Shown: piece after piece, positions 3,075 through 59,395 of the stretch
How positions within the stretch are numbered: the stretch's first letter is position 1
How the letters are laid out: each line of letters opens with the position of its first letter
From: a virus
Lineage: Duplodnaviria; Caudoviricetes
Length of the DNA stretch: 59,451 nt
Strand: one strand, 5' to 3'
IMG/VR virus record: IMGVR_UViG_3300035670_000233
Location: 1-59,451 of that record
The notes under the pieces: generated by a model
Databases searched by the model: none
Seen by the model: the letters and a program-made list of their open reading frames with translations, nothing else
Told to the model about the DNA's origin: nothing
Position numbers and translations under genes: made by a program

Positions 3075-3583
3075 ACTTCCCTCAAAGATTCTAGGAACGC
3101 CACTTCTTCCTCGCAGGCTTGGATTAACCCTCGTCTATCGGACTCTTTCCCCTGGAAAAGATATTCTCTAAGAAACGCGGCTTTGTCATAGGGCGTACCT
3201 CGGCAGTAGAGTTGTCCAGTTCTCTTAAATACGGGACAACCAACACAGCGACCATTTAGAAACAGCAAACATAAAGCACAGAACCTAGGGCTTATCCCTA
3301 TTAGCTTACCGCTCTTAGCCAACGCTACATTATCTTTCCAGTGCTCGATGCTTTCTTCTAATGCCTTCATAATAATCCCCAACAGAACATGTCCACTCTT
3401 AATCGTGTTGGTATTGCACTCAGAGCAGAATCCATCATGGCAGTCTGGTTCAACGAACTCCACCTGATTGCACCCATCATTGGTGCAAATGCCTGGAATA
3501 ACACTCTCGTCTCCATACTGATCGAGATAATCAGCCAGATCATCTAAGCCCTCAACCTCAAACAAATCATCAAGCTTGCTCAT
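3071..3583 (-). CDS. Cys-rich hypothetical protein, possibly a two-domain fusion
   Basis: CTNDGC...C...CSEC N-half and CALC...CVGCP...C C-half; overlaps both neighbours. Confidence 0.6.
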   Translation of the reverse strand: MSKLDDLFEVEGLDDLADYLDQYGDESVIPGICTNDGCNQVEFVEPDCHDGFCSECNTNTIKSGHVLLGIIMKALEESIEHWKDNVALAKSGKLIGISPRFCALCLLFLNGRCVGCPVFKRTGQLYCRGTPYDKAAFLREYLFQGKESDRRGLIQACEEEVAFLESLREV

Positions 3584-4283
3584 TTCTTTTCTCCCTTCGC
3601 TTCTTCATGCACTCTTTGCACTTACCAAAGTAGGATCTTCGTTGATTGGGACCACGAACCCGCGTATAAAATTCCGTGGAACTCTTGATCAAACCACACT
3701 CGTTACATTTGATCTTTTCTTCTGGTTCTTCGCGGGGGTGGAATCCTTCCTCTAAAAGAACCCTCTTTATTCCAGTTAAACGCTTCACCACGGTGGAGTG
3801 ATCTAGCTCCAGCACTTGAGCTATTTCTTCCACCGTCCACCCATCGAGTCGTTTCTCGACGATTACACGATCCAGTGGCTCTAGTTGGAAGTCCTTAATG
3901 AGGTCATACTCATCATAGGTGTATCTTGGCGCACCAGAAATATCCAGACCCGAACTCAAAGATACGATAATCGGCCGCACGCCCTTCTTTAGTTGAACTG
4001 GCATCCTCGTTAAGGAATCTTCCTCAGGATCTGGATCTACCAAATCACGAGTGCGTGGTTTGTGTACTACACAGTCCGACACCACGAAGTTCTTACAGGC
4101 ACCTTTGCACCTTAAGAAGACAATCGCCTCAGGATTCTTATGCTCTCCATCGTGGGTGTTGGCGAAGACTGTTAGTTCCTCGTAGGCCAGCATCAGCAAC
4201 TCATCGTACAGATGCGGGTGTGTAGCCTTGAACAGATCAGCGGCTTTCTTAGCCGTGGGCATGAGTGCTTCGATGTTAATCAT
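3570..4283 (-). CDS. phage sigma-factor-like protein with C-terminal C4 zinc finger
   Basis: Region-4-like HTH (LEPLDRVIVEKRLDGWTVEEIAQVLELDHSTVVKRL), helical region-2-like N-terminus, CNEC...CKEC tail. Confidence 0.7.
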   Translation of the reverse strand: MINIEALMPTAKKAADLFKATHPHLYDELLMLAYEELTVFANTHDGEHKNPEAIVFLRCKGACKNFVVSDCVVHKPRTRDLVDPDPEEDSLTRMPVQLKKGVRPIIVSLSSGLDISGAPRYTYDEYDLIKDFQLEPLDRVIVEKRLDGWTVEEIAQVLELDHSTVVKRLTGIKRVLLEEGFHPREEPEEKIKCNECGLIKSSTEFYTRVRGPNQRRSYFGKCKECMKKRREKRNEQA

Positions 4284-5670: not shown

Positions 5671-6118
5671 CGAGGATTCCCCTGAGCGCGACCATTTGAT
5701 CAATGGCATCCGACCACGCGCTATGCTGATTGGTATAGAAAACCTTTTCACCCTCCAACAAAGTCCGAAGATCTCGCTCCTGCCGATAACTCCAATTAGG
5801 TGTAATAGCGCAACGGGCCATTGATTCTCGAATAATCACTAAGTCGAACTGGGGAGACTTAGCCCACACAAGATCGCCGGCGTGAATGTACTGATTCATT
5901 TCCCACAACGCACTATTGAGCGGAATTGTTCCTCCGAGTGTAATATTCTTTCCCCACCACTTGAGGGTTGCGGGTTCAATAATCCCACCAGCGGTTTCAA
6001 TATCTATTAACCAACTATGGCTTACGATCTCATCCCCAATTAGACGAGCCATGCCGATTTGCAGAATCGGGGCGGTGGGCTTAATACCCAACGTCTCAAT
6101 GTCGATCATGATATTCAT
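5636..6118 (-). CDS. DEDDh 3'-5' exonuclease (Rv2179c/exonuclease VIII-like)
   Basis: IMIDIETLG...ILQIG...WAKSPQFDL...RDLRT...HSAWSDA. Confidence 0.85.
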   Translation of the reverse strand: MNIMIDIETLGIKPTAPILQIGMARLIGDEIVSHSWLIDIETAGGIIEPATLKWWGKNITLGGTIPLNSALWEMNQYIHAGDLVWAKSPQFDLVIIRESMARCAITPNWSYRQERDLRTLLEGEKVFYTNQHSAWSDAIDQMVALRGILDERSRSSPKQK

Positions 6119-6269
6119 TCTTTGATCACCAGTGCTGCGAGACCACGCCCCACGTGAAGCGCAGAAAGTTCTGTTACCAACAACTTACGATATTCTGTAT
6201 CGACGACTACCTCGTCAACCTGTGTTTCCTTACCATCTTTATCTATCTTAGTTACTGTGATTTTCAACT

Positions 6270-6473
6270 TCATTCTATCTCCCTATATACAGCTACACTA
6301 CCATCGAATCCTGAAAATGCAAACTCCCGATGTGGTACGCGCTCTCCAAGAGTTTCTTTTCCTATTGGTAGAATACTTTGTTCTAATGGTACTCTAATGA
6401 TTCTCCTTTCCAACGGCTCAGCTACTTCGTCCATCTTACTACATCCGCAGCGGGTAATTAGTTTAATCCTCAT
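6270..6473 (-). CDS. hypothetical protein
   Basis: Small ORF with 4-bp overlap to the upstream gene. Confidence 0.5.
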   Translation of the reverse strand: MRIKLITRCGCSKMDEVAEPLERRIIRVPLEQSILPIGKETLGERVPHREFAFSGFDGSVAVYREIE

Positions 6474-6763
6474 AGCACTACCTCGTCATGTCCGTGTTGG
6501 GTCTGGTCTAATAGACAAGACGTAACTTCCCGACCAGATTTAGAACAAGACATATTCAATGAACAATCGTCGCACTTAGCCTCTGGTTCTTTTCCAAAGT
6601 AAACCGTGTACGGTCCTCGGGGATAATCATATACAACGTTCACCACGATAGGCCAGTGCTTTGCCAGTACACGCTGTCCCCGCATCCCATAGATGATTTT
6701 AGGTGTCCTGTCTCCTCTACGGAGACCAGGATCAGACTGAAAGCCTACAGCTTTAATCCTCAT
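6470..6763 (-). CDS. hypothetical protein
   Basis: Overlapping chain of small minus-strand ORFs. Confidence 0.5.
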   Translation of the reverse strand: MRIKAVGFQSDPGLRRGDRTPKIIYGMRGQRVLAKHWPIVVNVVYDYPRGPYTVYFGKEPEAKCDDCSLNMSCSKSGREVTSCLLDQTQHGHDEVVL

Positions 6764-7169
6764 AGATTAACTCCCTATAGTCCTCCGTGACGACCACTGA
6801 GATTTTGGAGGGGCCACGCATGGCAATTACATTAACTCGCCCGCTCCGCCACGCCACATACGAGTCGCCGGTGTGTACCTTTAGGTAGTTAACTAGATCA
6901 GATATTACTTTGCTTACACTCTCTGGTGGAATTGCTGTGCCCTTAGCCCAGAAGTCTCCAGAATCTTCATCTGGAATGGAACAGAGCCTTCCCACATACT
7001 TCATACCTAGATCGGTCGTCCGGAATAATCCGTCGCTCAACAGCTCCAAAGCACCCAGGCTTTGCCATCTTGCAATAGCTTGTGCTACGCTGGGAGTATT
7101 GATGTATGGATGATGCTCTGTATGGTAATGATACCATATCAAAACTTCGATGTCAACGGGTCGTTTCAT
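6753..7169 (-). CDS. hypothetical protein
   Basis: 138-aa ORF in tight operon. Confidence 0.55.
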   Translation of the reverse strand: MKRPVDIEVLIWYHYHTEHHPYINTPSVAQAIARWQSLGALELLSDGLFRTTDLGMKYVGRLCSIPDEDSGDFWAKGTAIPPESVSKVISDLVNYLKVHTGDSYVAWRSGRVNVIAMRGPSKISVVVTEDYRELIYED

Positions 7170-12975: not shown

Positions 12976-13439
12976 AGTCTCACCACCAACCATGCTGCAC
13001 CGATAACGTAATCGGCTAGCGGTTTGATGAATCCATGTGGATCGTAGATCTTTTGCTCAGTAGAATTCCATGCTACCATATGTTCTGGCGAACTAGAGCC
13101 TCTCTTGCAGTAGATTAGCGCATCCCTAGATTGCAGATATCCCACGAACCTGCGACTGCACACGGAACGGTCCCAAATAATCTTTGGGGCGCTTTCCCTG
13201 TTTGGTGCGATAGTCGGGAATAGTTCTACTTGAAGTAGAATAATCCCAAGATCGTAGGCCACGTCAATCAATTCTTGAATGTGTATTCCCCTTAGTTGCT
13301 TCTGCCCTTCCTGCTCAGGAAAAGCAACTTCGGTACCATCATGGCCCAGTCTTTTGATTATGTCCTCAGGACTACAATCGAAAGCCATAGCTGCTGCGTA
13401 AATCATGCACCGCGGACCTTGTTGCGTAAGTAGTTTCAT
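12972..13439 (-). CDS. C39-like (papain-fold) cysteine peptidase
   Basis: Q..Q...C...AAAM nucleophile segment, HMVAW, IYDP; start moved to MKLL. Confidence 0.6.
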   Translation of the reverse strand: MKLLTQQGPRCMIYAAAMAFDCSPEDIIKRLGHDGTEVAFPEQEGQKQLRGIHIQELIDVAYDLGIILLQVELFPTIAPNRESAPKIIWDRSVCSRRFVGYLQSRDALIYCKRGSSSPEHMVAWNSTEQKIYDPHGFIKPLADYVIGAAWLVVRL

Positions 13440-14080
13440 ACCTTTTTCTCCAGTACCGCTTTTTGCGTGTGATACCCGTTCCACCATGCTTTCGACAAGG
13501 GTGATCCCTTAGGGTAGGGACATTCCACACTCGTTAGGCTATTAGCTGCTTTGGCACCCTCATCCGTCGCTACACTTAGGCACCCCTTCAGCCAAAGAGC
13601 ATGATCCTCTGGGTTTTTGGGGTATGGAGGCAGTTGTCCTTTCCTACCTTCTTCCATTATTTTATCCAACTTTTCGGATCTAGGTGGCAAATCTAGCTTA
13701 AATTCGGTCCTCGATTTAATCCACGGCTGCGAAAGATTACCTAGATCAGCGGGAAGTAGATCTTTCTTGATACACTCTTCATTGTGTATGATTCCCATGA
13801 CGTTGAACGCCACCGCCGCGGCATGATCCTCATCACGATCTCCCTTAAAGAGTTGTACCAGGTGTCGGAAGGCACTTTCCATGTATCGTGCCGTCGGTTG
13901 CCCCTTCGCCCAGTTATGCTCACCGTACTTAGCAAGCCCCTTCTGCATGTGTAATCCAAGGCGCTCAAGAAAGTAGGGGCTAATGAGGTCGGGACGAGGT
14001 TTTCCTTCATTTGTATCTCTCCTTGATCCTGTTGGAAATTCTTCTCGCCTGCCCGAGTCTTTGACGATAAAATCACTCAT
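13436..14080 (-). CDS. dATP/dGTP diphosphohydrolase (DUF5664-like) with C-terminal extension
   Basis: KDSGRREEFPTGSRRD..GKPRPDLI...GLAKYGEHNWAKG...SAFRHL...EDHAAAVAFN. Confidence 0.85.
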   Translation of the reverse strand: MSDFIVKDSGRREEFPTGSRRDTNEGKPRPDLISPYFLERLGLHMQKGLAKYGEHNWAKGQPTARYMESAFRHLVQLFKGDRDEDHAAAVAFNVMGIIHNEECIKKDLLPADLGNLSQPWIKSRTEFKLDLPPRSEKLDKIMEEGRKGQLPPYPKNPEDHALWLKGCLSVATDEGAKAANSLTSVECPYPKGSPLSKAWWNGYHTQKAVLEKKV

Positions 14081-15063: not shown

Positions 15064-15620
15064 ATTCCATCCCGATGCTCAATCTTGAGAGCACCTAGAT
15101 TGTTCTTTATATACTTGCCCACCGGATCAGAGTCAGCTTTTTCCTTTAGGCCATTGGACCACAACCAATGCAGGTACGATGCGGGGACATCCTGCATCAA
15201 TTTGCCCATGTGCTTTCCATAGGGCATCCGATCCATGTCCTTTAATCCAGCCACTACTGGAGTGACCCATTGCTTAACCTTAGAAGCAAACCCTGGCCCA
15301 GGTTGAATAATCAACGTAGACAATCCACGACCCTCGGCCAGCTTAATTTCCATAGCCACGCCGATTGATTCCTTAAATCCTGGAATATTTAGAACTACAA
15401 GATGCGTACAGACTAACATCATCTTGGAGTTATGTTCTTTCCAATATTCCCATGTCTTGGGAAGTCCACCTGATTGGGCCAATAGATGTCCGTGGGTTAT
15501 CGGTGAGTATACCAATAATCCAAACTGCATTAGGTCTGCTGCGGCTTTGGTTACTACGCGAAAACGATCCTCCCGAACGAGAGGATCTTCGTGACTGTAT
15601 GGTGTTGCTAAGTAGATCAT
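15057..15620 (-). CDS. DUF1937 (nucleoside deoxyribosyltransferase-like) fused to a DUF3820-like domain
   Basis: IYLATPYSH...YSPITHGH...ESIGVAMEI; C-terminal MPYGKHMGKLMQDVPASYLHWL. Confidence 0.75.
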   Translation of the reverse strand: MIYLATPYSHEDPLVREDRFRVVTKAAADLMQFGLLVYSPITHGHLLAQSGGLPKTWEYWKEHNSKMMLVCTHLVVLNIPGFKESIGVAMEIKLAEGRGLSTLIIQPGPGFASKVKQWVTPVVAGLKDMDRMPYGKHMGKLMQDVPASYLHWLWSNGLKEKADSDPVGKYIKNNLGALKIEHRDGIW

Positions 15621-16489
15621 ACCATTCTCTCCAGTTTCTCCAAGAATTCTTTCATCTCCCTAGCTGTTAAGAACGGGTGCATTTCCTGAATTAATTGTGC
15701 TGGGTAGGTGGAAGGAAGCTCGTTCTTTCTCAACAGGTCACGAATAATCCTCCGAAGGGCTTCCACATCGTAGGCTGAGAAGGCTTCAGCTTCCAACCTA
15801 TATTGCGTAAACGCTATCCAGCAATCAGGAACAGCCTCAGACACAAATTGTGTTATGGCTTTAGCGTATTCTCTGATTTCCTGCTGTGCCGTTCGATGCA
15901 GTCTCTTCTCCAAGAAATGGAAAAGATTATGCAGGTCAATCTTCCAGTATGCTTCCGTATATGTAGATAGAGGAAGATCCTTTCTAGCTTGTTCCCTAGC
16001 CACACCCATAGCCAGGCGCTCTTTGTAAACACACCTTGCTAGGTCGTGCAATTCCAGTTCTCTTACGCTAAGGTGTTCCTGCGGATCATCACTTAATCTC
16101 AGAGCATCCTTACTAGGCCAGTGGATCGGCTCCATTCCAGATCCCTGTCTATTACCTTTTGATTGTCCCCGCCAGTACTGCGTCAGGGCCATAGAATCAA
16201 TGGCCTCTGAGTAGCGAGTAGAATATTCGTTAACATTGGCTGTTCTATGGCGAATCCATTGCCGCCAAGTATCCATTGGCACACGCACATGAAACTTAAA
16301 CTCCACCATTTCAAATGGCGTAGTGTGTCCATGCCGCATCAAGTAATTAATCAGCGTGCGATCATCCGAGGGGGTTTTCGTGCCCGCCCCGTACGACACT
16401 CTAGCGGCCTGAACAACGGAATGATCATCACCCATTACGTCCACGAGTCTGACGAATCCATCAGGAGCGACTGGTACGTTTGTGGTCAC
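15617..16489 (-). CDS. thyX: FAD-dependent thymidylate synthase
   Basis: AARVSY, HTTPFE, RQWIRHRTANVNEYSTRY, AREQARKDLP, AQQEIREYA. Confidence 0.95.
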   Translation of the reverse strand: MTTNVPVAPDGFVRLVDVMGDDHSVVQAARVSYGAGTKTPSDDRTLINYLMRHGHTTPFEMVEFKFHVRVPMDTWRQWIRHRTANVNEYSTRYSEAIDSMALTQYWRGQSKGNRQGSGMEPIHWPSKDALRLSDDPQEHLSVRELELHDLARCVYKERLAMGVAREQARKDLPLSTYTEAYWKIDLHNLFHFLEKRLHRTAQQEIREYAKAITQFVSEAVPDCWIAFTQYRLEAEAFSAYDVEALRRIIRDLLRKNELPSTYPAQLIQEMHPFLTAREMKEFLEKLERMV

Positions 16490-49723: not shown

Positions 49724-51367
49724 TTAACCTCTAAAGTCCCTATTACCACCAAGTTGAACGCCTAGGGCTAAAGCTATCTCGGCATAGTTTCTAGCATGTG
49801 CATAGTGGTCAGGATTCTTTCCAGACTCGTATCTTCCCACAGGATTTCCGTCACGATCCTTATCGTAGATGCGAGTAGGAGCGCAGATATGCTCGCGGTA
49901 TTCTACGTCCACATCTGTGGGGAGGGTAATAGTGCGCTTCTTGAAGCGGCCCAATGAAAGATCCAGCCAAGACGTACGATTAACCTGTACGCTCAATTCC
50001 TCTGGATTATCCTTAATAAGCTTACCAGAGACGCCTTGGGCATATTTGCACATGCGAACAGAGTGCAAGAATCTCTTTGCAAACTCAAGAGAGCTACGAG
50101 TCTCAGGTTCAATATCAATCACGCAGTACCCTACCCGAAATTCGAGCATTAGTTCGTCAAGATCATGAAAGTTAGGCACCCGTAGGAATTTAAGAACGCG
50201 GCAGGAGGCCAGAGCATTAAGGTCGGCTTCAAAGACCCGATGATTAAAGTTCCACTCATCAATCTCTACGTGGAGCACCTTGCCTACGTCAACACCCATC
50301 GTAACGAAGGAATTAGAAGAAGGACGGACATCGCAATTATGCCCGATACAGGCAGTGATTTGTTCATCTGTGACCTTTCCACCCTTGACAACGTGTGGCA
50401 ATCCACCCTTACTATTATAGAGTTCCTGCTCATCGGTAGGGTCTTGCTCAGCTTTGAAGCACAACTCGGCAATCTTGTAGGGAGGCAGAATGATAGAGTA
50501 CAGCTGATTAATATAGTAGCTAACAATCTCCGTGCCTTGTACGGTAGGCACCCATTCCGCATTGCCCTTTGCCAAGAAAGTCTTCTTGGCAGCATGATCC
50601 AACTTGTGCTTGCACTCTTTACAGAAAATGTAGGATTCTTTAATCGCTGGATCTTCAAAAGAATCCCCACAGATGTGCAGACAATCGGGGAAAACTAATT
50701 CCGTTAAGCGGGAGCAGTGTGGACATTTGAACATGTAGTGGCGCTGATCGCCTTGCTTAAAGTAGACGTTAATGCCAAAGTTCTCAATGGTCGGCGTAGA
50801 AATCATATAGACCTGGCGCTGCAATTGTCCAGACATGCGCTCCATGGCCAATGTGATATTCTCAAACACCATTTCGTCTACTTCATCGAAAACAATAAGG
50901 TTAGCCGGAATTGATTTTAGCTGCGAACGGCTTCGACTGCCTCGAATGAATAGATTAGCTGATCCAGCGCGTTTGTGCCCGATGTTCTTTACGTCAGTGA
51001 ATAGGCTAGCAAGGTGCGGAGATAATTCCAGAGCGGCATCAAACCGTGATGTTGAAAAATCACGCGCATCGGGATGCAGGGAAGGTAGAATGTACAATAC
51101 GTTATAGGCATCAATATCAATGGCCTTGAACGTCTTGTTGAGTGCGATTTCAGTGAACGCCATCTGCGCCGCTTTTTGCGCGACCATTTGCTCTGCAATA
51201 CACTCCTGCGGTTCTTCGGCCCACGGATGGTGTTCGTAGGACCATCGACCTGGGCAGGGTGGACCCATAATCCGGTATTCCTGTGCCCATTTGCCGGCAG
51301 TCGTAATGGACTTCCGACGTAAGCCGGAAGCCACGCGCTGCTTCAAGAGTTGGGCCAAGTCTTCCAT
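49724..51367 (-). CDS. terL: terminase large subunit (GpA-like)
   Basis: KAAQMAFTE, LKSIPANLIVFDEVD, ISTPT, CPHC/CKEC, MGVDVG, PDHYAHA. Confidence 0.9.
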   Translation of the reverse strand: MEDLAQLLKQRVASGLRRKSITTAGKWAQEYRIMGPPCPGRWSYEHHPWAEEPQECIAEQMVAQKAAQMAFTEIALNKTFKAIDIDAYNVLYILPSLHPDARDFSTSRFDAALELSPHLASLFTDVKNIGHKRAGSANLFIRGSRSRSQLKSIPANLIVFDEVDEMVFENITLAMERMSGQLQRQVYMISTPTIENFGINVYFKQGDQRHYMFKCPHCSRLTELVFPDCLHICGDSFEDPAIKESYIFCKECKHKLDHAAKKTFLAKGNAEWVPTVQGTEIVSYYINQLYSIILPPYKIAELCFKAEQDPTDEQELYNSKGGLPHVVKGGKVTDEQITACIGHNCDVRPSSNSFVTMGVDVGKVLHVEIDEWNFNHRVFEADLNALASCRVLKFLRVPNFHDLDELMLEFRVGYCVIDIEPETRSSLEFAKRFLHSVRMCKYAQGVSGKLIKDNPEELSVQVNRTSWLDLSLGRFKKRTITLPTDVDVEYREHICAPTRIYDKDRDGNPVGRYESGKNPDHYAHARNYAEIALALGVQLGGNRDFRG

Positions 51368-51597
51368 TACTTAATCCTGCGAAGTTTCACATCGAGAGCC
51401 TTATCAACAATATCTCGTCGAAAAAAGATACCCTCAGTACGATTAGTGTACTCTATTCCGTTCGGCAGAACGAAAAGTGTACCAGCAGGGCATGTAAAGC
51501 ACGACTCACGCTCAATAGCGATTATCTGTGTTTTACATCCCGCTGCGAACAGAATTAAGAATCCTGCTCGCATCACCGTTTTTCCAAGCGTCTTCAC
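51367..51597 (-). CDS. small lipoprotein (o-spanin candidate)
   Basis: Lipobox FLILFAAGC; overlaps the end of the upstream gene. Confidence 0.55.
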   Translation of the reverse strand: MKTLGKTVMRAGFLILFAAGCKTQIIAIERESCFTCPAGTLFVLPNGIEYTNRTEGIFFRRDIVDKALDVKLRRIK

Positions 51598-51715
51598 GTT
51601 CGTTGATCGCCTTTAGCATCTTTTCTTTTTTATCTTGACTTCGTTCCCGTAACCATCCAATGATTGTTGGTGTTAGGGCCAACAGTTCTAAAATTACTGT
51701 ACTCCACTTAGTCAT
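51533..51715 (-). CDS. small membrane-anchored protein (i-spanin candidate)
   Basis: Hydrophobic N-terminus then charged helix; overlaps the lipoprotein gene. Confidence 0.45.
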   Translation of the reverse strand: MTKWSTVILELLALTPTIIGWLRERSQDKKEKMLKAINEREDAWKNGDASRILNSVRSGM

Positions 51716-51924
51716 TTCTTGCTCGGATGAGCTTTCTTCGAGCGGAAAACACCAATAATAAGACTAGCTGCTGTGATTAGTCCATACACACTGGTCAGCA
51801 GGTCATTGAAGATCGGGATGGCCGTATCAGCTTGTTCCTTGGACATCACTCCGATGGTGGCCAGAACACCAAATACTACTGGAACAACCTTCATACCGAC
51901 CGAAAGAATCAATTCACCGTTCAT
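51712..51924 (-). CDS. holin-like protein
   Basis: Two hydrophobic helices and basic tail RSKKAHPSKK; start moved to MNGE. Confidence 0.6.
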   Translation of the reverse strand: MNGELILSVGMKVVPVVFGVLATIGVMSKEQADTAIPIFNDLLTSVYGLITAASLIIGVFRSKKAHPSKK

Positions 51925-52550
51925 TGTGCGCTCCTGGGTTTTACTTCGTGGCTTGGAAACTCTGACCAAGCATTTTCGTCGTTAAAACTGAACCAAACCT
52001 GATCGCCTCCAAAATACTTTGGATTCTCCTTCACTGGAATAGTGTAATCCTCAGGCCAATAGCACCAATCCAGAGGAATCCAAGCCTCATCCGTTTCTCG
52101 GCAATAAGTAGCCCAAGCATGACCAGCTCTTTTACCCTCAGACTGCACGTATCCAGCTGCTACTCGAATACGCCAAGCCGGCATACCTAGATTTCGCAGA
52201 ATCGAAACGATTAAAATCGCACCATCTTCACAATCACCTTGGCCCAACTTCGTTGTCTCAGTAGGAAATAGCCAAAATTCTGGAGTACCAAGAGTAGTGT
52301 CGGCAACATATTTGATTCTTTGCCGCACAAATTGATGTACTGCGTAGGCCATATGGTCTGAGCGTTGATTAGGTAGGCTATATAGCGGAGCGAAACTGTC
52401 AATGTATTGCTTAATCACAACATCATCAGCCCAAATGAACCTTCTCAGATCCATGGGGAATCGCTCATCCTTACTTGGAATTGGCCTGCCTGCGTAGACC
52501 AGATCCCTTTTGGGATGCTTTGTATTCCAAAATGCTGGGCCACGCATCAT
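51921..52550 (-). CDS. transglutaminase-like cysteine peptidase
   Basis: IKYVAD...EFWLFPTET...GDCEDGAIL..S.L...GHAW...WIPLD (Cys-His-Asp). Confidence 0.85.
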   Translation of the reverse strand: MMRGPAFWNTKHPKRDLVYAGRPIPSKDERFPMDLRRFIWADDVVIKQYIDSFAPLYSLPNQRSDHMAYAVHQFVRQRIKYVADTTLGTPEFWLFPTETTKLGQGDCEDGAILIVSILRNLGMPAWRIRVAAGYVQSEGKRAGHAWATYCRETDEAWIPLDWCYWPEDYTIPVKENPKYFGGDQVWFSFNDENAWSEFPSHEVKPRSAQ

Positions 52551-53434
52551 TGAACTGCTCCGATTGCCTTGATTGCCGGAATCTGATCCTCTACGGACTT
52601 AATTCCTGTTCCAGTGTAGATGCAGACGCCATTACCCTTAGCGCGGCCACGGCGCACAAAGTCTGCCGCGGTGTTTGGGTTGATTATTGTGCCCGTGTTG
52701 AAATTTCCGCCAGTGTAAAGTGGCCCGTCCAAGTACAGATCCAGAACAGCAGGTTCATCATTTGCATCAGTGTAAGCGTCAATGGCCGTTCCACAATCAG
52801 GAATAAGCAGGATATTTGAGCCATTTCCTAGATCACTCAGCTTGCAGGAGTGATAAGCCCGAGTCCATGCGCCGCCGTTCGACGTTGGGCGGGAGCCACG
52901 ATTATAGCAAGTCTTGAATCCGGCCTGATTAAAGGTCTTCAACCATCGTGTTTCATAATCCCTGCCGCGACTCGTTTGTGTTTCAGCAACAGGCTGGACG
53001 ATTACGTTAGCCGGACCAGCTTCGAGGACTATCTGTGCAGCCCGCTCACACTCTTGTGGAAAGTGGGAAATGTCATGTACTCCACTTTGGCCCCACTTCT
53101 TGATGTGCATATTGTCGTTAACGATCGAAACGAAGAGAGTTAAATTACGCTTGCGGCACTCTTTCAAGAGGGCAAGATAATCATCCTTGAGAGCATCTGC
53201 ACCGCCTGGGCGATATCCGTGCTTGATGGAAACGGTGCTCCCCATATACTCTATGTCTGTTATATTGCAGCCGCTCTTAGCAAGAGCCTCGCAGAGAAGG
53301 GTATAGTCCTTACCTGGCCAGTTATAGGAAATTCCCAGTCCTTTAGCCTCCCGTGGATTATTAACTGGAGTAACCTTTGTTACCACATCAGGATTACACC
53401 CAGCCAGAAGAAGCAGAAAGATTATTTTCTTCAC
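52547..53434 (-). CDS. lipoprotein, possible glycoside-hydrolase-like TIM barrel
   Basis: MKKIIFLLLLAGC lipobox; alternating beta/alpha pattern, NVIVQPVAE. Confidence 0.6.
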   Translation of the reverse strand: MKKIIFLLLLAGCNPDVVTKVTPVNNPREAKGLGISYNWPGKDYTLLCEALAKSGCNITDIEYMGSTVSIKHGYRPGGADALKDDYLALLKECRKRNLTLFVSIVNDNMHIKKWGQSGVHDISHFPQECERAAQIVLEAGPANVIVQPVAETQTSRGRDYETRWLKTFNQAGFKTCYNRGSRPTSNGGAWTRAYHSCKLSDLGNGSNILLIPDCGTAIDAYTDANDEPAVLDLYLDGPLYTGGNFNTGTIINPNTAADFVRRGRAKGNGVCIYTGTGIKSVEDQIPAIKAIGAVQ

Positions 53435-53730
53435 TTTTCTGTTCCTTGATGAAGTAACATAGGAGCAGATTCCCAGTTATTAGCCTGACGATTCTGCTTC
53501 TCAGTACGACCGGCCCAGTCCACGAAGTCCCCATAGCGAATAACCGACCTCTTAAATAACTTCCACTCCGTCTCGCGCGTAACTATGAAAGCTGTTCCAA
53601 GAGCGACAGCCACAAGAATCATCCAGAATTGACGGGCATTTTGACGTATAGTAATTTGTTGTAGTGTTTTCAGCTCACTGATGTCAATATCAGATGAGCG
53701 CCGTCGCTCAAGAGTAGCATCTTCTGACAT
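53431..53730 (-). CDS. single-pass membrane protein
   Basis: ERRR N-terminus then FWMILVAVALGTAFIV. Confidence 0.6.
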   Translation of the reverse strand: MSEDATLERRRSSDIDISELKTLQQITIRQNARQFWMILVAVALGTAFIVTRETEWKLFKRSVIRYGDFVDWAGRTEKQNRQANNWESAPMLLHQGTEK

Positions 53731-53763
53731 CTTGTATCTCCTCTCGGAAGCGAGTAAAATCTT

Positions 53764-54336
53764 TCACTCGTCCTTCTTTGGTTTCTTCAACTTCTCGCTG
53801 AACTCAACAGCCGCCAGCATGTTTGTGGCCGCGTCCTTGGTGGCTTTATCAAGTTTCGTGTCCGCCACAATCGCGGCGAGCAGCGCCTTGTAGGCAGCCT
53901 TCTCGGCCTGATGAGCCGCAATCGCCGAATCACGCCGCGCCTGTAGCGTAGGATCATCGGGGCGCGGACTTTGGTGATCCATATACGTCACAAGATCGCC
54001 GTCGTCGCTGGCGATGATGCCGATACCCCAATCGTTTGTACGCGACTGGAGCACGATCACCGGAGCCTCTATGCCGTTTGGCTCGCTACGCGGGGCTGTC
54101 TCTTCGGCCAATTCCGCGATGTACTGCGCTACTATGTCGGGATCGTTTGTGTGTGCTCGAATCTCTTCTATCGGCGTTCCATTGCTTGTACGTATACGTT
54201 CGACGTCATCCTGAATGAATCGAGCATCCGGACCCTCATCACGACGCAGCACAAGCACTTCTAGGTCAGCAGCGCGGGCAATTGATGTCAACGCAAACAG
54301 ACAAGCGGCCAAAACTCTAATAAAGGCGGATCGCAT
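53764..54336 (-). CDS. secreted-type hypothetical protein
   Basis: Signal peptide MRSAFIRVLAACLFALTSIARA (AxA site). Confidence 0.65.
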   Translation of the reverse strand: MRSAFIRVLAACLFALTSIARAADLEVLVLRRDEGPDARFIQDDVERIRTSNGTPIEEIRAHTNDPDIVAQYIAELAEETAPRSEPNGIEAPVIVLQSRTNDWGIGIIASDDGDLVTYMDHQSPRPDDPTLQARRDSAIAAHQAEKAAYKALLAAIVADTKLDKATKDAATNMLAAVEFSEKLKKPKKDE

Positions 54337-55399
54337 AGACGTACCCTCCGTATGTCATTGTGTATATGTTACCACCGGCATTATTATTAATCACCGGAAA
54401 GAACTTTTGTGACAGTACAGTATTATATCCAACAACAATCCCTGTCACTTCCAGAAATGTAGCCTTTGCGGCTGTTGGCTGACTTGCGTTGATTCTACGG
54501 GTTACGTTGGCATACCAGTTAGGCTGATATGAAAACCCAACTCCTATGTCGCTATTTGCTGTCGTGCTGTTGGTATACGCAAACGACATGCCCCAAAGAA
54601 TGCAGAAGTGTTCATTTTGGCCAATTGTCTCAAATCCATTAGTACGATTCCAATCACCGCTAATAATGTTAAGTGTCGGCGTTACGGTAGCAGCGGCTGA
54701 AACATAGGTGGCTCCAATGGACGCGATCCAAATATCGTTCGAAGCTATGCTTCCTCCGGTTGATAGTCCGGCGACCAAGGATGATACCCAGTTGCTCACT
54801 CCCGATGAGTCAGGAAAAACCCCAGCCGTGCCTGAGAGCGTTGCCTCAGTGTTCGTCCACACCAGAACGTCACTAGGAATCCGTGCAATTGGGACCAGAT
54901 TAGTGTCGCTGTCCATGAAGGCGAGTTGACCAAGATCGTTTGTCCACGAATCACTTAAAGCAGCGGGTGGGTTTGTGATACCAGCATAATCACCATACGC
55001 GGCCCGCGTGATTCCATTTGTCCAATTATCGTCGTTTCGGTAGGCAGAGTCGGCGTTAGCATCAAGTTGATTCGTTGTGAGCGTGGGAATGCGCGACAAC
55101 TCTACCGCGTTCGTGTCGATGTCCATGAAGGCCAATTCACCAAGGGTGTTGGTAAATGTTCCCATGGCCGATCCGCTGACTGGATTAGTTGAGTCATTGA
55201 TTGATTGCTGAACATCAGAATAACGTATCGCGTCAGTAAGATCGTTAGTTACCGTACCTAATGCATTGGTAACTGAGCTAATTTGATTTGTAAGATCTGT
55301 AATACTTTGTGGCAGCTGTTCCACACCAATTGGATTGGCTAGTTGCCCGAAAACATTACCAGCGAACAATAGAGCCGAAATGATTATCTTACCTCTCAT
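54317..55399 (-). CDS. secreted-type T/N-rich fibre-like protein
   Basis: Signal peptide MRGKIIISALLFAGNVFG; internal repeat LG.LAFMD.DTN...RIP. Confidence 0.65.
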   Translation of the reverse strand: MRGKIIISALLFAGNVFGQLANPIGVEQLPQSITDLTNQISSVTNALGTVTNDLTDAIRYSDVQQSINDSTNPVSGSAMGTFTNTLGELAFMDIDTNAVELSRIPTLTTNQLDANADSAYRNDDNWTNGITRAAYGDYAGITNPPAALSDSWTNDLGQLAFMDSDTNLVPIARIPSDVLVWTNTEATLSGTAGVFPDSSGVSNWVSSLVAGLSTGGSIASNDIWIASIGATYVSAAATVTPTLNIISGDWNRTNGFETIGQNEHFCILWGMSFAYTNSTTANSDIGVGFSYQPNWYANVTRRINASQPTAAKATFLEVTGIVVGYNTVLSQKFFPVINNNAGGNIYTMTYGGYVYAIRLY

Positions 55400-55408
55400 G
55401 ATTACTCC

Positions 55409-56308
55409 TTAGGGCAGTGTAGTATCGGTAGTAGAAGTGTCGGTCGTGGTGGAAGTGTCAGTCGTGGTAGTAGAAGTAGTAGTCGTACTATCGGTAGTCG
55501 TACTATCGGTAGTCGTACTATCGGTAGTCGTACTATCGGTAGTCGTACTATCGGTAGTCATACTATCGGTAGTCGTACTATCGGTAGTCGTACTATCGGT
55601 AGTCGTACTATCGGTAGTCGTACTATCGGTAGTCGTAGAGGATGAAGTAGTCGTACTATCGGTAGTCGTAGTCGTGTCGGGTGTGGTGGTAGTAGAACTA
55701 GTGGTGGTAGTAGTAGTAGAACTAGTAGTAGTAGAACTAGTAGTAGTAGAACTAGTAGTGGTGTACGTGGCTTCATAGGTCCAGGGATTTATGAAGTCCG
55801 AAAGGACCCACGTCGTAGAATCAAAAGCCATAAGCGTGACCTGTGACCACGCCGCGGTGTTGGTTTCGGAATAGCCAGAATAGACGGCGTCATATCCTGC
55901 AATGCTATCAGAATCATTCGCGATCAGATATAGAAGAACTCCCCTCTGCTTAACAACAATCTTAAGAGTCTCACCTGCAGCTGTAATCTTAGGCAGAATA
56001 GACTCAAAAATCTTAACATCAGTTAGATCGTAGGTAACCGTAGAATTAAGATTATCACGAGTCAAAACTGCGGGTCCAATAGTTGCTCGCATCTGGTTAG
56101 TTGCAGCGTTCCAATTATTGGTATCCAGAGCCATCTGATTAGAGATTCTTTGGGACTCTGTGTATCCTGAAACACCCAGGGCTACATCCGCCTCGATAAG
56201 AACCTTATCAGCAGACCAGACCGGATCGCTCTCATTCACACCTGGAGTGATTGTATCTGCCCTAGCAAGTAGAGCTAAGGAAAAGAAAAAGGCAATTAGC
56301 TTCTTCAT
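55409..56308 (-). CDS. secreted-type protein with Thr/Ser-rich mucin-like tail
   Basis: Signal peptide MKKLIAFFFSLALLARA (start moved to 56308); ESDPVW motif; (DSTTT)n C-terminus. Confidence 0.7.
   Translation of the reverse strand: MKKLIAFFFSLALLARADTITPGVNESDPVWSADKVLIEADVALGVSGYTESQRISNQMALDTNNWNAATNQMRATIGPAVLTRDNLNSTVTYDLTDVKIFESILPKITAAGETLKIVVKQRGVLLYLIANDSDSIAGYDAVYSGYSETNTAAWSQVTLMAFDSTTWVLSDFINPWTYEATYTTTSSTTTSSTTTSSTTTTTTSSTTTTPDTTTTTDSTTTSSSTTTDSTTTDSTTTDSTTTDSTTTDSMTTDSTTTDSTTTDSTTTDSTTTDSTTTTSTTTTDTSTTTDTSTTDTTLP
55420..55762. repeat. 15-bp tandem repeats (GTACTATCGGTAGTC; GTAGTAGTAGAACTA) encoding DSTTT/SSTTT
   Basis: About ten near-perfect copies at 55485-55636 plus degenerate flanks. 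Confidence 0.95.
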
Positions 56309-56318
56309 GATTATTCCC

Positions 56319-56588
56319 TTATTGCAGATATGCGACTTGGAGAACGCCACTGGTTCCTGTAGCCCTCGTGGTGCGAAAGCCCACCAGACTGCTCTTACGA
56401 TCAATGTTGAGCGTCGATCCAGCGGTCAGCAGCAGGCCGGTTGTGGTATCAGGACTGGTACCGTCCAACATGATTCTCACGGGTGCTGTTTCGCAGGTGA
56501 TCAGTGCACCCGTGATTAATCGGTTCGCATACTTACCCGAGTTGAGACTCTTAACTGTATCGTCTACGGTGATCTTCTCGAAAGCCAT
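56319..56588 (-). CDS. small beta-rich protein (possible virion decoration protein)
   Basis: ALITCETAPVR..LDGTSPDTTTGLLL.AG...L. Confidence 0.6.
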   Translation of the reverse strand: MAFEKITVDDTVKSLNSGKYANRLITGALITCETAPVRIMLDGTSPDTTTGLLLTAGSTLNIDRKSSLVGFRTTRATGTSGVLQVAYLQ

Positions 56589-56591
56589 TGC

Positions 56592-57125
56592 CTACTCCTT
56601 CTTGTCTATCGCTTCGATAATCTTGGAGCTTACACGCTCCAGAATTTCTTTTCCGCCCTGCAGGGAGTCCAATTCATCGCTGAGAATTTGGACTACTTCC
56701 GAGGCAAACTGCAAAATGGCTGATTTGTCAAGCAGCTTGCCAGAAGATTTTTCAATCGAGTGGCAGGATGAAACGAGCTTCTCAATCTTAAGAGTAAGAT
56801 CTGAGATACGGCCGGCATGGATTACTACATCCACTGGCTGCTCGCAGCGATTGAGAACCTCCTCCAGAGTGATTCTCAGGATTCCGATTTCATCCCGCAG
56901 TGATTTAATCGCCGGAGCGTTCGCCTTTTCATCTAGGCGTGATTGGAACAATCGGACTCGATACTGACTGGTTGCCTTTTTCTCTTGGGCGCGGACTGTA
57001 GCTGCTCCTCCGTGTACGTAACAATACTTCCCACCAGGCACAGCCTCATGGATACACTGGCGAAATGATGTTACCGCTTGGCAGCGGGTAGGAGAATCGG
57101 GCTTTGCTACTACTAAGTTATCCAT
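56592..57125 (-). CDS. putative terminase small subunit / HGG zinc-binding protein
   Basis: RCQA...QC...YCYVHGG then helical SLRDEIGILR; first gene of the late block; start moved to MDNL. Confidence 0.6.
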   Translation of the reverse strand: MDNLVVAKPDSPTRCQAVTSFRQCIHEAVPGGKYCYVHGGAATVRAQEKKATSQYRVRLFQSRLDEKANAPAIKSLRDEIGILRITLEEVLNRCEQPVDVVIHAGRISDLTLKIEKLVSSCHSIEKSSGKLLDKSAILQFASEVVQILSDELDSLQGGKEILERVSSKIIEAIDKKE

Positions 57126-57262: not shown

Positions 57263-57368
57263 AAATGCTAGGAGCCTAAATGATTAGAGGCTAATCTAAA
57301 AGTTGGGTGCTAGGAGCCTAAATGCTAGGAGCCTAAATGATTAGAGGCTAATCTAAAAGTTGGGTGCT
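57263..57368. repeat. 49-bp direct repeat x2 (57-bp period) with internal palindromes
   Basis: AAATGCTAGGAGCCTAAATGATTAGAGGCTAATCTAAAAGTTGGGTGCT at 57263 and 57320. Confidence 0.9.
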
Positions 57369-57442
57369 GGGTGTGGGGTCGGTACGGGTGGGTAAGGGCG
57401 GGGCGGCGGGGGATACCCGCCACCCCAAACCCCGACCGCCGC

Positions 57443-58276
57443 TTAGTCGTCGCCCTCCGCGCTATCTTGTCCCGCGTCAAAGCCACAAGCAAGGTCAAGA
57501 TCTACCGCGTCCCCGCCTAGAATTGCGTCTAGAATATCGCGAGGATCGGCGCTGTCCACCCCGCCCTTGTCTAGCGCGGCGCGCACACGTTCAATTTCCT
57601 TGCGCGACACGCACTTAACCGCATTGCCCCTTTCCTTTACGGTCAATTCCTTGTCGAACGTATCCCGCTTATTTGGAGACTTGAGCACGCGTTGACAAGC
57701 TTCCTTGTCAAGCTTGCTAACTTTCTCAACCGGAAAGCCAAGCTTTACAAGCTTAGCTTGCCGGAAAAGCAACTGCTGCCGTCCGCGCAATGCGGGGATG
57801 TCCTTTTCCTTGCGATACACTCCCGCATTAACGAGGGCAACGACGGCCTCCAGTGTTTCCTTTGCGCGCAACTTGGCAATGACAAGACTTGCCAAGTTAG
57901 CGGTGTGACTAGTCGCTTCGGCTTCTTCTTCTGCAATCTCAATACAAGGCCAGTCTGCCGTTAGTGCGTAATGAGCCCGCGCCGCCAGATAGGCAACAGC
58001 ACGATGCCGCCCGTCCGCAATAACAGGATATTCCTTACTACCATACTCGCGCATGATAGCGTCAAGAATAACGTCCTTACTGTCCTTACGGCTCCCGATA
58101 ACGTTGACAGTATCGGGCAGATAGCGCGCCAGTTCTTCCCGCTCCAAGTAGGCAGTTTTGCCCGCAAAAGTCACGAGGACATTACCGGCGACGATGCCAC
58201 TATTAACGATTGCCGTCAAAATGGCGGCAGTTGTTTCCGGTTGCGGACTGCGAGGATTATTTCCGATTGCGTACAT
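57443..58276 (-). CDS. divergent ParB/Srx-like protein 3
   Basis: GNNPR N-terminus, YPVIADGRHRAVAYL, TANL; helical C-terminus. Confidence 0.6.
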   Translation of the reverse strand: MYAIGNNPRSPQPETTAAILTAIVNSGIVAGNVLVTFAGKTAYLEREELARYLPDTVNVIGSRKDSKDVILDAIMREYGSKEYPVIADGRHRAVAYLAARAHYALTADWPCIEIAEEEAEATSHTANLASLVIAKLRAKETLEAVVALVNAGVYRKEKDIPALRGRQQLLFRQAKLVKLGFPVEKVSKLDKEACQRVLKSPNKRDTFDKELTVKERGNAVKCVSRKEIERVRAALDKGGVDSADPRDILDAILGGDAVDLDLACGFDAGQDSAEGDD

Positions 58277-58910: not shown

Positions 58911-59060
58911 CTAGGCCCATCCTAGCGCGTTTAAAGGGCATAGGCTCTTAAACGCCTTAGGATGGTCCTAGGACCGTTTTACCCTACCAGATAAGGCAAA
59001 GACTAGGGTGGTACCCTGTCAGCATGTTCTAGGACCATCCTAGCGCGTTTAAGAGCCTAT
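58911..59060. repeat. three copies (+,-,+) of a ~30-bp element CTAGGACCATCCTAGCGCGTTTAAGAGCCTAT
   Basis: Copies near 58911, 58940 (inverted) and 59029. Confidence 0.8.
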
Positions 59061-59128
59061 TACGCGAGCCTAGCGCAGCACGGCGGCGCGCATGCGGCGG
59101 GTGGGCGCGCCCGTGCTCTATATTCCAC

Positions 59129-59176
59129 GCACGCGCACGCGCACGCGCACGCGCACGCGCACGCGCACGCGCACGC
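59129..59176. repeat. (GCACGC)8 microsatellite
   Basis: Read directly; strictly alternating purine/pyrimidine. Confidence 0.95.
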
Positions 59177-59263
59177 GAAAAATGATGCGGAGAATCCGCC
59201 TAAAATTATGATTAGATTATTTGAAACCACCCCACACGCAAAATGATTCTTGTTGCCTTGCTT

Positions 59264-59395
59264 GCAACAAAAATCACGTTGCGTGTGGGGTGGTCCCCGC
59301 CCGCAACAAAAAAAATCACGTTGCATGGGATTAAATGGTCCGTGGATTCCACCTAAAACAAAAGCCTAAAATGGTCCGTGGATTCCGCCTAAAAA
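59264..59395. repeat. paired short direct repeats near the right end
   Basis: GCAAC-(A)n-TCACGTTGC x2 (59264, 59303); AAATGGTCCGTGGATTCC(A/G)CCTAAAA x2. Confidence 0.8.

Follow-up and report, generated by a model that had tools for sequence, protein, structure and literature searches.

The DNA analysed here, called the window below, is the whole of the IMG/VR virus record IMGVR_UViG_3300035670_000233 (59,451 bp); its ends were classed as linear, and its completeness was estimated by CheckV at 64%. The subject is a block of ten minus-strand genes that separates a candidate terS gene, for the small terminase subunit, from terL, with 5225 nucleotides (nt) between the end of the former and the start of the latter. 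These values agree with the initial annotation, in which ten genes and about 5.2 kb had been noted between the two terminase genes. Read from terS, the block genes are p89, pST, p360, p190, p99, p295, the gene of a transglutaminase-like protein, p85, p60 and p76, as listed below (aa, amino acids; here and in the text a slash marks a predicted cleavage site).

56592-57125, minus strand: terS candidate, 177 aa, whose N-terminus holds a Cys-rich C..C..C.HGG motif and whose C-terminal half is helical
56319-56588, minus strand: p89, first gene after terS, a small conserved protein without a signal peptide
55409-56308, minus strand: pST, 299 aa, with a predicted Sec signal peptide, ESDPVW, a variable middle and a 117-aa Thr/Ser/Asp-rich tail
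54317-55399, minus strand: p360, 360 aa, internally repeated (two copies), with a predicted Sec signal peptide and with WTNG..GDYAGITNPP motifs that also occur in a few fibre-like proteins
53764-54336, minus strand: p190, 190 aa, with a predicted Sec signal peptide ending ARA/A; an orphan in the searches run
53431-53730, minus strand: p99, single-pass membrane protein with a predicted transmembrane helix at residues 32-50, 54% identical in the related record L002
52547-53434, minus strand: p295, predicted lipoprotein (LLAGC) with a TIM-barrel (triosephosphate isomerase-type) fold nearest to GH5 of clan GH-A
51921-52547, minus strand: transglutaminase-core cysteine peptidase (Pfam Transglut_core), 208 aa, no signal peptide, candidate endolysin
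51712-51924, minus strand: p85/p70, holin-like, with two predicted transmembrane helices
51533-51715, minus strand: p60, i-spanin-like, with an N-terminal transmembrane helix and a 39-aa charged segment
51367-51573, minus strand: p76, o-spanin-like lipoprotein (FAAGC), whose gene overlaps p60
49724-51367, minus strand: terL, large terminase subunit, identified by tblastn to annotated large terminases

The spacing across this region was operon-like, with gaps ranging from -41 to +33 nt and overlaps at seven of the eleven junctions. Shine-Dalgarno-like sites of the AAGGAG or GGAG type were observed 6-9 nt upstream of most block starts, including those of pST, p360 and p190. Consensus promoter and terminator sites occurred in the block at the frequency found in shuffled sequence. 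Because this operon-like spacing is shared with terS and terL, we infer that the block is expressed late.

The arrangement of the terminase genes was compared among relatives in a metagenome scan with a four-sequence terS alignment, which yielded at least 256 confirmed loci, the first 80 of which were examined. Both terS and terL were seen, by tblastn of window proteins, in 36 of the 80. The gap between them was at most 110 nt in 21 loci, 280-800 nt in eight and 3.5-5.9 kb in seven, two of the last appearing to represent one phage. A further 19 loci extended for at least 1.4 kb after terS without terL, and 25 others were too short to tell. Among the IMG/VR relatives found through terL, L003 has the two genes side by side, whereas 4.2 kb lie between them in L002 and 9.6 kb in L004. 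Since the two genes adjoin each other in 21 of the 36 relatives showing both, the block is almost certainly a real insertion between the terminase genes, as the initial annotation had it, and the junction a recurrent cargo slot in a widespread uncultured phage clade. A pair of genes usually treated as fixed is thus here a recurrent site for cargo.

The same 21 loci make the terS call sound by position, because its homologues adjoin terL there. By sequence, the candidate matched no named terS family; only weak matches, to an unannotated PHROG and to the NCBIfam HGG_STG domain, were obtained, and a profile of its family found nothing in the PDB below E 0.07. Its identity was 69% to the L002 counterpart, 45% to that of L003 and 31% to that of L004. 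The cysteine motif, together with the weak HGG_STG match, hints at DNA binding through a part of the zinc-ribbon type, a feature uncommon among small terminases. For terL, matches to annotated large terminases included that of Wolbachia phage WO (E 3e-27), and the L002 protein was 81% identical.

At the start of most large inserts in relatives stand one or two small proteins (79-91 aa), and big fibre-like proteins (373-1164 aa) come next. None of the nine slot proteins of at least 370 aa in relatives (11 loci listed) was called as carrying a signal peptide, and such signals on fibre-like slot proteins were seen in the window and L002 only. The small protein p89 was 74% identical in L002, and a local jackhmmer search added members from L041, L048 and L088 to its family. 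In L088 (1518-3959) one p89-type copy makes up the N-terminal part of a protein of 813 aa without a Pfam match, which suggests that p89 may be an adaptor module for large fibre- or spike-like proteins. No Pfam or PHROG match was obtained for p89, its profile found nothing in the PDB below E 0.07, and comparison with a second small post-terS family by hhalign gave a probability of 0.5%, so that the two are not detectably related.

Other relatives carry cargo of an exported type in the same slot. L104 encodes a 199-aa protein read as papain-like by eye (no Pfam match) and two predicted lipoproteins, one of which is a Pfam-supported thioredoxin. L004, L005 and L006 encode a holin-like small protein, signal-anchored proteins and a 343-348 aa protein with an N-terminus of the twin-arginine translocation (Tat) type, which in L004 (343 aa) gave only a weak C39-like match. 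A membrane-anchored thioredoxin is present in L004, supported by Pfam run on that copy; L006 has a protein at the same position, and L005 has none. The coordinates of these Tat-type and thioredoxin-domain proteins are L004 7362-8393 and 8387-8941, L005 4381-5427, L006 7340-8374 and L104 5253-5576. Because the inserts of L104 and of L004, L005 and L006 carry exported-type cargo, cargo predicted to be periplasm-directed recurs in the terS-terL slot. In some members of the clade it appears to be aimed at the host periplasm and surface, in the form of a glycosidase-like lipoprotein enzyme, exported thioredoxins and a Tat-signal protein.

Export signals were called by an in-house heuristic (charge, hydrophobic core, small-x-small site and a regular expression for lipoboxes), not by a trained predictor. 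A Sec type I signal was defined by a positively charged beginning, followed by 7-15 hydrophobic residues free of charge and by a small-x-small site no further in than about residue 30, and a lipobox by [LVI][ASTVI][GAS]C at the end of the signal sequence. The three-part signal-peptide pattern was observed at the N-termini of pST (MKKLIAFFFSLALLARA/D), p360 (MRGKIIISALLFAGNVFG/Q) and p190 (MRSAFIRVLAACLFALTSIARA/A), in all cases with a positive start, an uncharged core of 10-13 residues and a small-x-small site. Lipoboxes were found in p295 (LLAGC) and p76 (FAAGC; VVSGC in the L002 counterpart), and transmembrane helices in p99 (one), p85 (two) and p60 (N-terminal). The claim of at least three Sec-type signal peptides, two lipoboxes and several membrane proteins was thereby reproduced.

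Export signals were present on five of the ten block genes, compared with one to three of about 75 greedy open reading frames (ORFs) elsewhere in the window, which gives a one-sided Fisher p between 4e-5 and 4e-4. One of the calls outside the block was the P22-type coat protein, a false positive, and one was weak; the heuristic, which also flagged a holin helix, is thus imperfect. On these counts the clustering of export signals in the block is beyond chance. The check on conservation proposed in the initial annotation gave a positive answer: where homologues exist the signals are kept, as in the L002 counterpart of pST, in P0031 (a relative of p360), in 24 of 30 members of the p295 family and in the p76 counterpart. 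Judged from these sequence features, the block export signals are very probably real.

A signal-bearing protein was also observed outside the block. P0068 (33998-36961, minus strand), a glycine-rich protein of about 990 aa between the tape-measure region and a 1057-aa tail protein, has the signal-peptide-like N-terminus MKLVVLFFLLVSVAFG/S, a strong ribosome-binding site (AAGGAG) before its start and an upstream gap of 254 nt. Its homologue in the genome of L002 (L024 1495-4449; 66% identity) keeps the signal pattern with different letters (MKTPIILFFLLVAAATA/D), and the lineage therefore appears to carry several large signal-bearing late-region proteins. P0068 had no family matches and no GenBank phage match by tblastn, and an ESM Atlas search gave no usable lead.

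The terL-proximal part of the block, 51367-52547, resembles a lysis cassette. The transglutaminase-like protein matched Pfam Transglut_core (PF01841) at E 1.3e-11, with 45.1 bits against a cut-off of 23, and carries the motifs GDCEDG at 104, GHAWA at 142 and PLDW at 158, which supply the Cys, His and Asp; it is 50% identical in L002. Its best solved matches were 4u65_E, the nearest by sequence (E 1.1e-7), and 4fgo_A, chains named 'Putative cystine protease' and 'Periplasmic protein', respectively, which we take to be LapG-type surface-protein proteases. Likeness to LapG was also seen in the Cys-His-Asp core and in the NCBIfam model NF045674 (CystProtLapG; E 2.3e-10). However, the protein lies far below both LapG/BTLCP cut-offs (40 against 320 bits for CystProtLapG, 21.8 against 27 for PF06035, C93) and has no signal peptide, whereas LapG is periplasmic.

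The holin-like p85/p70 is small (70 aa from an ATG at 51924, which is preceded by AGGAG), has two predicted helices (residues 21-39 and 57-75 of the long form), ends in the charged KKAHPSKK and lies beside the candidate lysin gene, in line with holin criteria (small size, one to three transmembrane helices, charged C-terminus, position beside a lysin gene). It had no holin family match in Pfam or PHROG. At the same position L002 has a 68-aa ORF with no tblastn similarity, in which two hydrophobic stretches were read by eye. Only 39 residues follow the N-terminal helix of p60, which is 67% identical in L002. The p76 gene, beside the holin-like gene, overlaps p60 by 41 nt, or by 65 nt if a GTG start at 51597 is used. 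This overlap is kept in L002 together with the lipobox. The peptidase and the spanin-like pair are conserved there at 50-67% identity. A complex prediction for the periplasmic part of p60 and mature p76 scored 0.00, which is not evidence either way.

Taken as predictions, these features make the segment probably a holin, endolysin and overlapped-spanin cassette of the type found in phages of double-membrane hosts. The holin/endolysin/spanin model of lysis for such hosts is described in PMC6116005. Compared with a Lambda-type cassette (holin, endolysin, Rz/Rz1), the likeness lies in a two-helix protein, an adjacent hydrolase, an inner-membrane protein with an overlapping lipoprotein gene, and a position near the packaging genes. 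In contrast to that cassette, the enzyme is here a transglutaminase-core peptidase without a PHROG match, the i-spanin-like protein has only 60 aa, and the cassette lies between terS and terL, not upstream of both. About half of the ten block genes thus probably form an ordinary lysis cassette, nothing exotic. Of the late export block of the initial annotation, the canonical signals stand, and the operon-like spacing fits late expression.

In the remaining part of the block, p295 gave the most informative structure. Its alignment-based AlphaFold2 model was confident (predicted local distance difference test, pLDDT, 87.8; predicted template modelling score, pTM, 0.87) and showed an eight-stranded TIM barrel. 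The best structural match was a GH5_2 cellulase, with a VIA-align Z of 15.7 and a root mean square deviation of 3.7 A over 231 residues at 7% identity; Foldseek matched GH5 enzymes at E 4e-7. GH113, GH29, GH20 and GH140 followed just below GH5, and identity to the top-ranked fold matches was 6-11%. The viral structural matches were uncharacterised phage proteins and annotated phage glycosidases. Four acidic residues located after strands, E62, D107, E151 and D213, are invariant, with E151 following strand 4 (144-149) and D213 following strand 7 (208-211). The barrel is shared with GH5 and clan GH-A, and the conserved acids, which appear to follow strands 4 and 7, fit a glycosidase, though not strictly the Glu/Glu pair of that clan. 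On the model and these residues, a glycan hydrolase is modestly favoured as the function of p295. The structure prediction and Foldseek comparison suggested in the initial annotation was accordingly informative for p295, but not for p360, whose AlphaFold2 model, built on a four-row alignment, reached a pLDDT of only 32.8 and was discarded as unusable.

Among 5.8 billion clusters, 29 homologues of p295 were found, none with a Pfam domain, and no GenBank phage match was obtained by tblastn. The N-termini in the resulting 30-row alignment comprised 14 with a lipobox, ten with another hydrophobic start and six with none; one of these six is truncated, and two belong to the close relatives P0005 and P0006. 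The family of about 30 sequence clusters differs from GH5 and clan GH-A in sequence and is uncharacterised in its own right. Distant homologues occur in Bacteroidia assemblies (at least ten loci, five examined). In all four readable loci, from Alistipes/Rikenellaceae, the homologue has a signal-peptide-like N-terminus and common, non-phage-looking neighbours, and p295 would accordingly define a new exported TIM-barrel family common to phages and Bacteroidia chromosomes. In L009, L011, L014 and L016, around 5750-6780, the homologue was observed as a single copy in this same neighbourhood, and the family may have a housekeeping envelope role in these bacteria. In the separate IMG/VR contig L018 (1358-9479), a p295 homologue ends a run of five signal-bearing ORFs that includes a protein with a concanavalin A (ConA)-like lectin domain; subtilase-like and papain-like amidase-like genes and then a head-tail adaptor match follow. 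The neighbouring p99 gene overlaps the start of p295 by 4 nt, and an IMG/VR scan with p99 found no relatives.

The secreted proteins pST, p360 and p190 proved far more variable. In pST the ESDPVW motif lies at residue 26, and residues 183-299 consist to 97% of T, S and D over 117 residues, encoded by a 15-nt tandem repeat in 12.6 copies. In the L002 counterpart the signal peptide (MKKILPILLLLAGTVMA/D) and the Ser/Thr-rich character of the tail are retained, as is a stretch of 31 aa (61% identity), while the middle is unrelated. Beyond this counterpart, no homologue of residues 1-205 was found in 5.8 billion proteins, and residues 18-85 had no GenBank phage match by tblastn.

Two internal copies of LG[EQ]LAFMD.DTN are present in p360. 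An exhaustive HMMER search of 1.84 billion representatives returned four sequences besides p360 itself, of which one was judged spurious and three (P0031, P0032, P0070) real; the real relatives share with p360 the short motifs WTNG..GDYAGITNPP and LG.LA..D.DTN. P0032 also carries a pST-like E.DP.W motif. Of the N-termini, that of P0031 bears a signal peptide and that of P0032 does not, while P0070 is truncated there. For residues 210-360 of p360, the ESM Atlas gave a weak lead to C1q, BclA or tail-tip-like knobs (template modelling, TM, scores 0.31-0.43). Neither p360 nor pST matched Pfam or PHROG, fibre families included; p360 had no GenBank phage match by tblastn, and IMG/VR scans with p360, P0031 and P0070 found no relatives. 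The ESDPVW motif and the repeats of the initial annotation are present, but the fibre-like label given there to two secreted proteins rests on short shared motifs and this weak language-model lead.

For p190, no match was obtained in Pfam, PHROGs, NCBIfam, PADLOC, GenBank phages or IMG/VR, and the protein is absent from L002. The PADLOC scan gave low-complexity or weak matches only, and no sign of a toxin fold or family was found in the block with Pfam, NCBIfam and PADLOC. In L002 a single unrelated 124-aa protein without a signal peptide replaces both p360 and p190. Because so much turnover separates phages with 81% identical terL, the trio appears to diversify fast, as would be expected for host-surface interaction.

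The following picture can be proposed, for which we hold the balance to be about even: the clade-typical slot inside the late packaging operon holds two parts, a lysis cassette and, in 52547-56308, a set of late, exported cargo acting on the envelope or surface. The cytoplasmic transglutaminase-core Cys-His-Asp peptidase would be the likely wall-cutting enzyme. The exported set would comprise the GH5-like lipoprotein p295, paired with p99, and the fast-changing secreted pST, p360 and p190, two of which carry fibre-type motifs. All block genes would be made late, together with the terminase, and the upstream set would be exported by the host Sec and lipoprotein pathways, reaching the periplasm or outer membrane before the holin fires. 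There p295 would cut an envelope or surface glycan, and the variable secreted proteins would bind or mask surface structures, or be freed at lysis. Either outcome would favour release or prevent the adsorption of progeny and rival phages to the dying cell.

Three elements of this picture are new here: cargo between terS and terL as a recurrent slot, an uncharacterised exported TIM-barrel family, and signal peptides on proteins with fibre motifs. Exported late-region cargo of lambdoid phages and receptor-masking lipoproteins are precedents. Spanin cassettes and exported endolysins are others (PMC6116005).

Several points weigh against the proposed picture. The signal-peptide calls come from a heuristic and not from a trained predictor. 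No sequence match of p295 to any glycosidase family was found (Pfam up to E 0.1; profile against the PDB, nothing below E 0.1), and an Asp stands after strand 7, where clan GH-A has Glu. The L018 contig might include host DNA, its estimated completeness being 41% and its ends undefined. The transglutaminase-like protein had no PHROG family or GenBank phage match, and it may not cut the cell wall, because its nearest solved relatives are presumably LapG-type proteases. With 60 aa, p60 is very short for an i-spanin. A masking or anti-readsorption role for pST, p360 and p190 is without direct support, since these proteins are near-orphans.

That role is possible but doubtful. T5 Llp and the Cor proteins of phi80 and N15 are small exported receptor-masking lipoproteins, often encoded beside receptor-binding genes, and the likeness lies in phage-encoded exported proteins that act on the host surface against adsorption. 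In contrast to them, pST and p360 have 300-360 aa, are not lipidated and carry fibre-like motifs, and no homology was found. A more specific version, in which pST and p360 (perhaps also P0068) would be tail-fibre-derived proteins that gained Sec signals and serve as late-exported decoys occupying or masking the phage's own receptor, is unlikely, and their addition to virions outside the cytoplasm less likely still. Neither route has, to our knowledge, been described for tailed phages, and literature searches on this theme turned up no such case among the matches listed. If true, decoys would limit progeny loss and superinfection from inside the dying cell, and proteins such as these, rarely seen, in which an export signal is combined with fibre motifs, might give phages a new means of control over their own receptor.

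The roles of the two block enzymes might instead be exchanged, p295 being the true cell-wall hydrolase, a membrane-tethered endolysin exported by the Sec and lipoprotein route, and the transglutaminase-like protein a LapG-like protease that clips surface adhesins after the holin opens. Such an exchange would suit the position of p295 two genes upstream of the holin-like gene, its conserved exported chromosomal homologues, and the alternation among its close relatives of lipobox, plain signal peptide and no signal (P0005 and P0006 without), which is also seen among endolysins; the 4u65_E, 4fgo_A and CystProtLapG matches of the other enzyme agree with it as well. Exported endolysins are established (PMC6116005), and p295 resembles the Sec-exported or signal-anchor-release enzymes (fOg44 Lys44, P1 Lyz, phage 21) in its hydrolase fold, export signal and place beside holin and spanin genes. 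It differs from them in a lipobox that would make it lipid-anchored and in a GH5-like, not lysozyme-like, fold, its best fold matches being cellulases, mannanases and fucosidases. The transglutaminase-like protein also fell short of the LapG and C93 cut-offs, and papain-like peptidase candidates adjoin holin-like genes in relatives, which favours a peptidase as the endolysin; the exchange is therefore rated as rather unlikely. We consider it improbable too that the secreted proteins serve lysogenic conversion or are morons, acting as surface adhesins or exclusion factors and produced by a resident prophage or plasmid-prophage rather than late in infection. Just upstream of the lysis genes is a classic site of exported cargo in the late operon of lambdoid phages (bor, lom, toxin genes), where signal-peptide proteins are released or displayed at late expression; the block proteins show hypervariability and mosaicism, plasmid-like maintenance could be read from the two Pfam ParB proteins of the window, and the 254-nt gap upstream of P0068 is as for a self-transcribed insert. 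However, the block shows no sequence relation to the lambdoid cargo and no toxin sign, its gaps leave no room for separate promoters or terminators, consensus sites stay at the shuffle level, and no integrase was found among about 50 window proteins scanned with Pfam (in a record that is 64% complete, so that one could be missing).

It is more improbable still that the secreted proteins are virion parts, with fibre-like proteins exported and then added to particles in the periplasm or at lysis. Fibre-type motifs are common to p360, P0031, P0032 and P0070, the Atlas lead concerns C1q-, BclA- or tail-tip-like knobs, large fibre-like proteins are frequent in the slot of relatives (and in L088 the p89 domain is fused to a protein of 813 aa), and P0068 of the tail module also has a conserved signal. 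Yet the fibre-like cargo of at least 370 aa in relatives is without signal peptides (0/9), p89 lacks one too, the knob lead is weak, the p360 model gave no help, and we know of no tailed phage that assembles exported parts. Nothing pointed to decoration of the virion, one of the options of the initial annotation. Least credible of all is the explanation that the hydrophobic stretches at the N-termini stay uncleaved as membrane anchors, or arose by chance, and are not cleaved signal peptides. The heuristic did flag a coat protein and a holin helix, but pST, p360 and p190 each combine all three parts of the signal pattern, the counterparts of pST and P0068 in the genome of L002 keep the pattern while the letters change, and the clustering in the block is significant. 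The picture of a lysis cassette joined with exported envelope- or surface-acting cargo is thus preferred to these alternatives.

As for the host, a double-membrane bacterium that uses Shine-Dalgarno sites is indicated by the consistent presence of such sites together with the lipoproteins and the spanin-like pair, in agreement with the diderm host proposed in the initial annotation. The Bacteroidota promoter motif TAnnTTTG gave 30 matches in the window against 32.5 expected and is not enriched. Bacteroidota rarely use Shine-Dalgarno sites, and the strong use of such sites in the window also argues against a host from that group.

In the rest of the window, Pfam matched a P22-type coat protein and a tape-measure-like protein among the structural proteins, and a family A DNA polymerase, a D5-like primase-helicase, an SNF2 helicase and a DNA ligase among those of replication; ThyX, a Dam-type methylase and two ParB proteins were matched as well. 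A 'ParB' label given by eye to a further protein of 277 aa (57443-58276) was dropped, Pfam giving no match. Because most of the structural proteins had no PHROG family match and terL was at most 26% identical to any GenBank phage by tblastn, the window is, to judge by sequence, a deep-branching uncultured tailed phage. The sequencing runs found to hold this stretch were three DNA runs, all from one study, with no RNA run among those listed.

The early region encodes, at 13436-14080, a dATP/dGTP diphosphohydrolase N-domain joined to an RMF-like part; at 15617-16489, ThyX; and at 3570-4283, a protein with a sigma-70 region 4 or extracytoplasmic function (ECF)-like match, which might drive phage transcription. 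Immediately upstream of terS, a gap of 250 nt contains a unit of about 47 nt in two direct copies and then a very GC-rich stretch (57275-57360 and 57360-57440), and Tandem Repeats Finder gave a period of 15 at 57308-57339; this site could serve packaging or be a promoter. At the right end of the window, 59060-59330 holds (CA)n and CGCACG microsatellites. L002, a record classed by IMG/VR as having direct terminal repeats, opens with the same (AC)n run at 1-130, and the end of the window is probably near a genome terminus.

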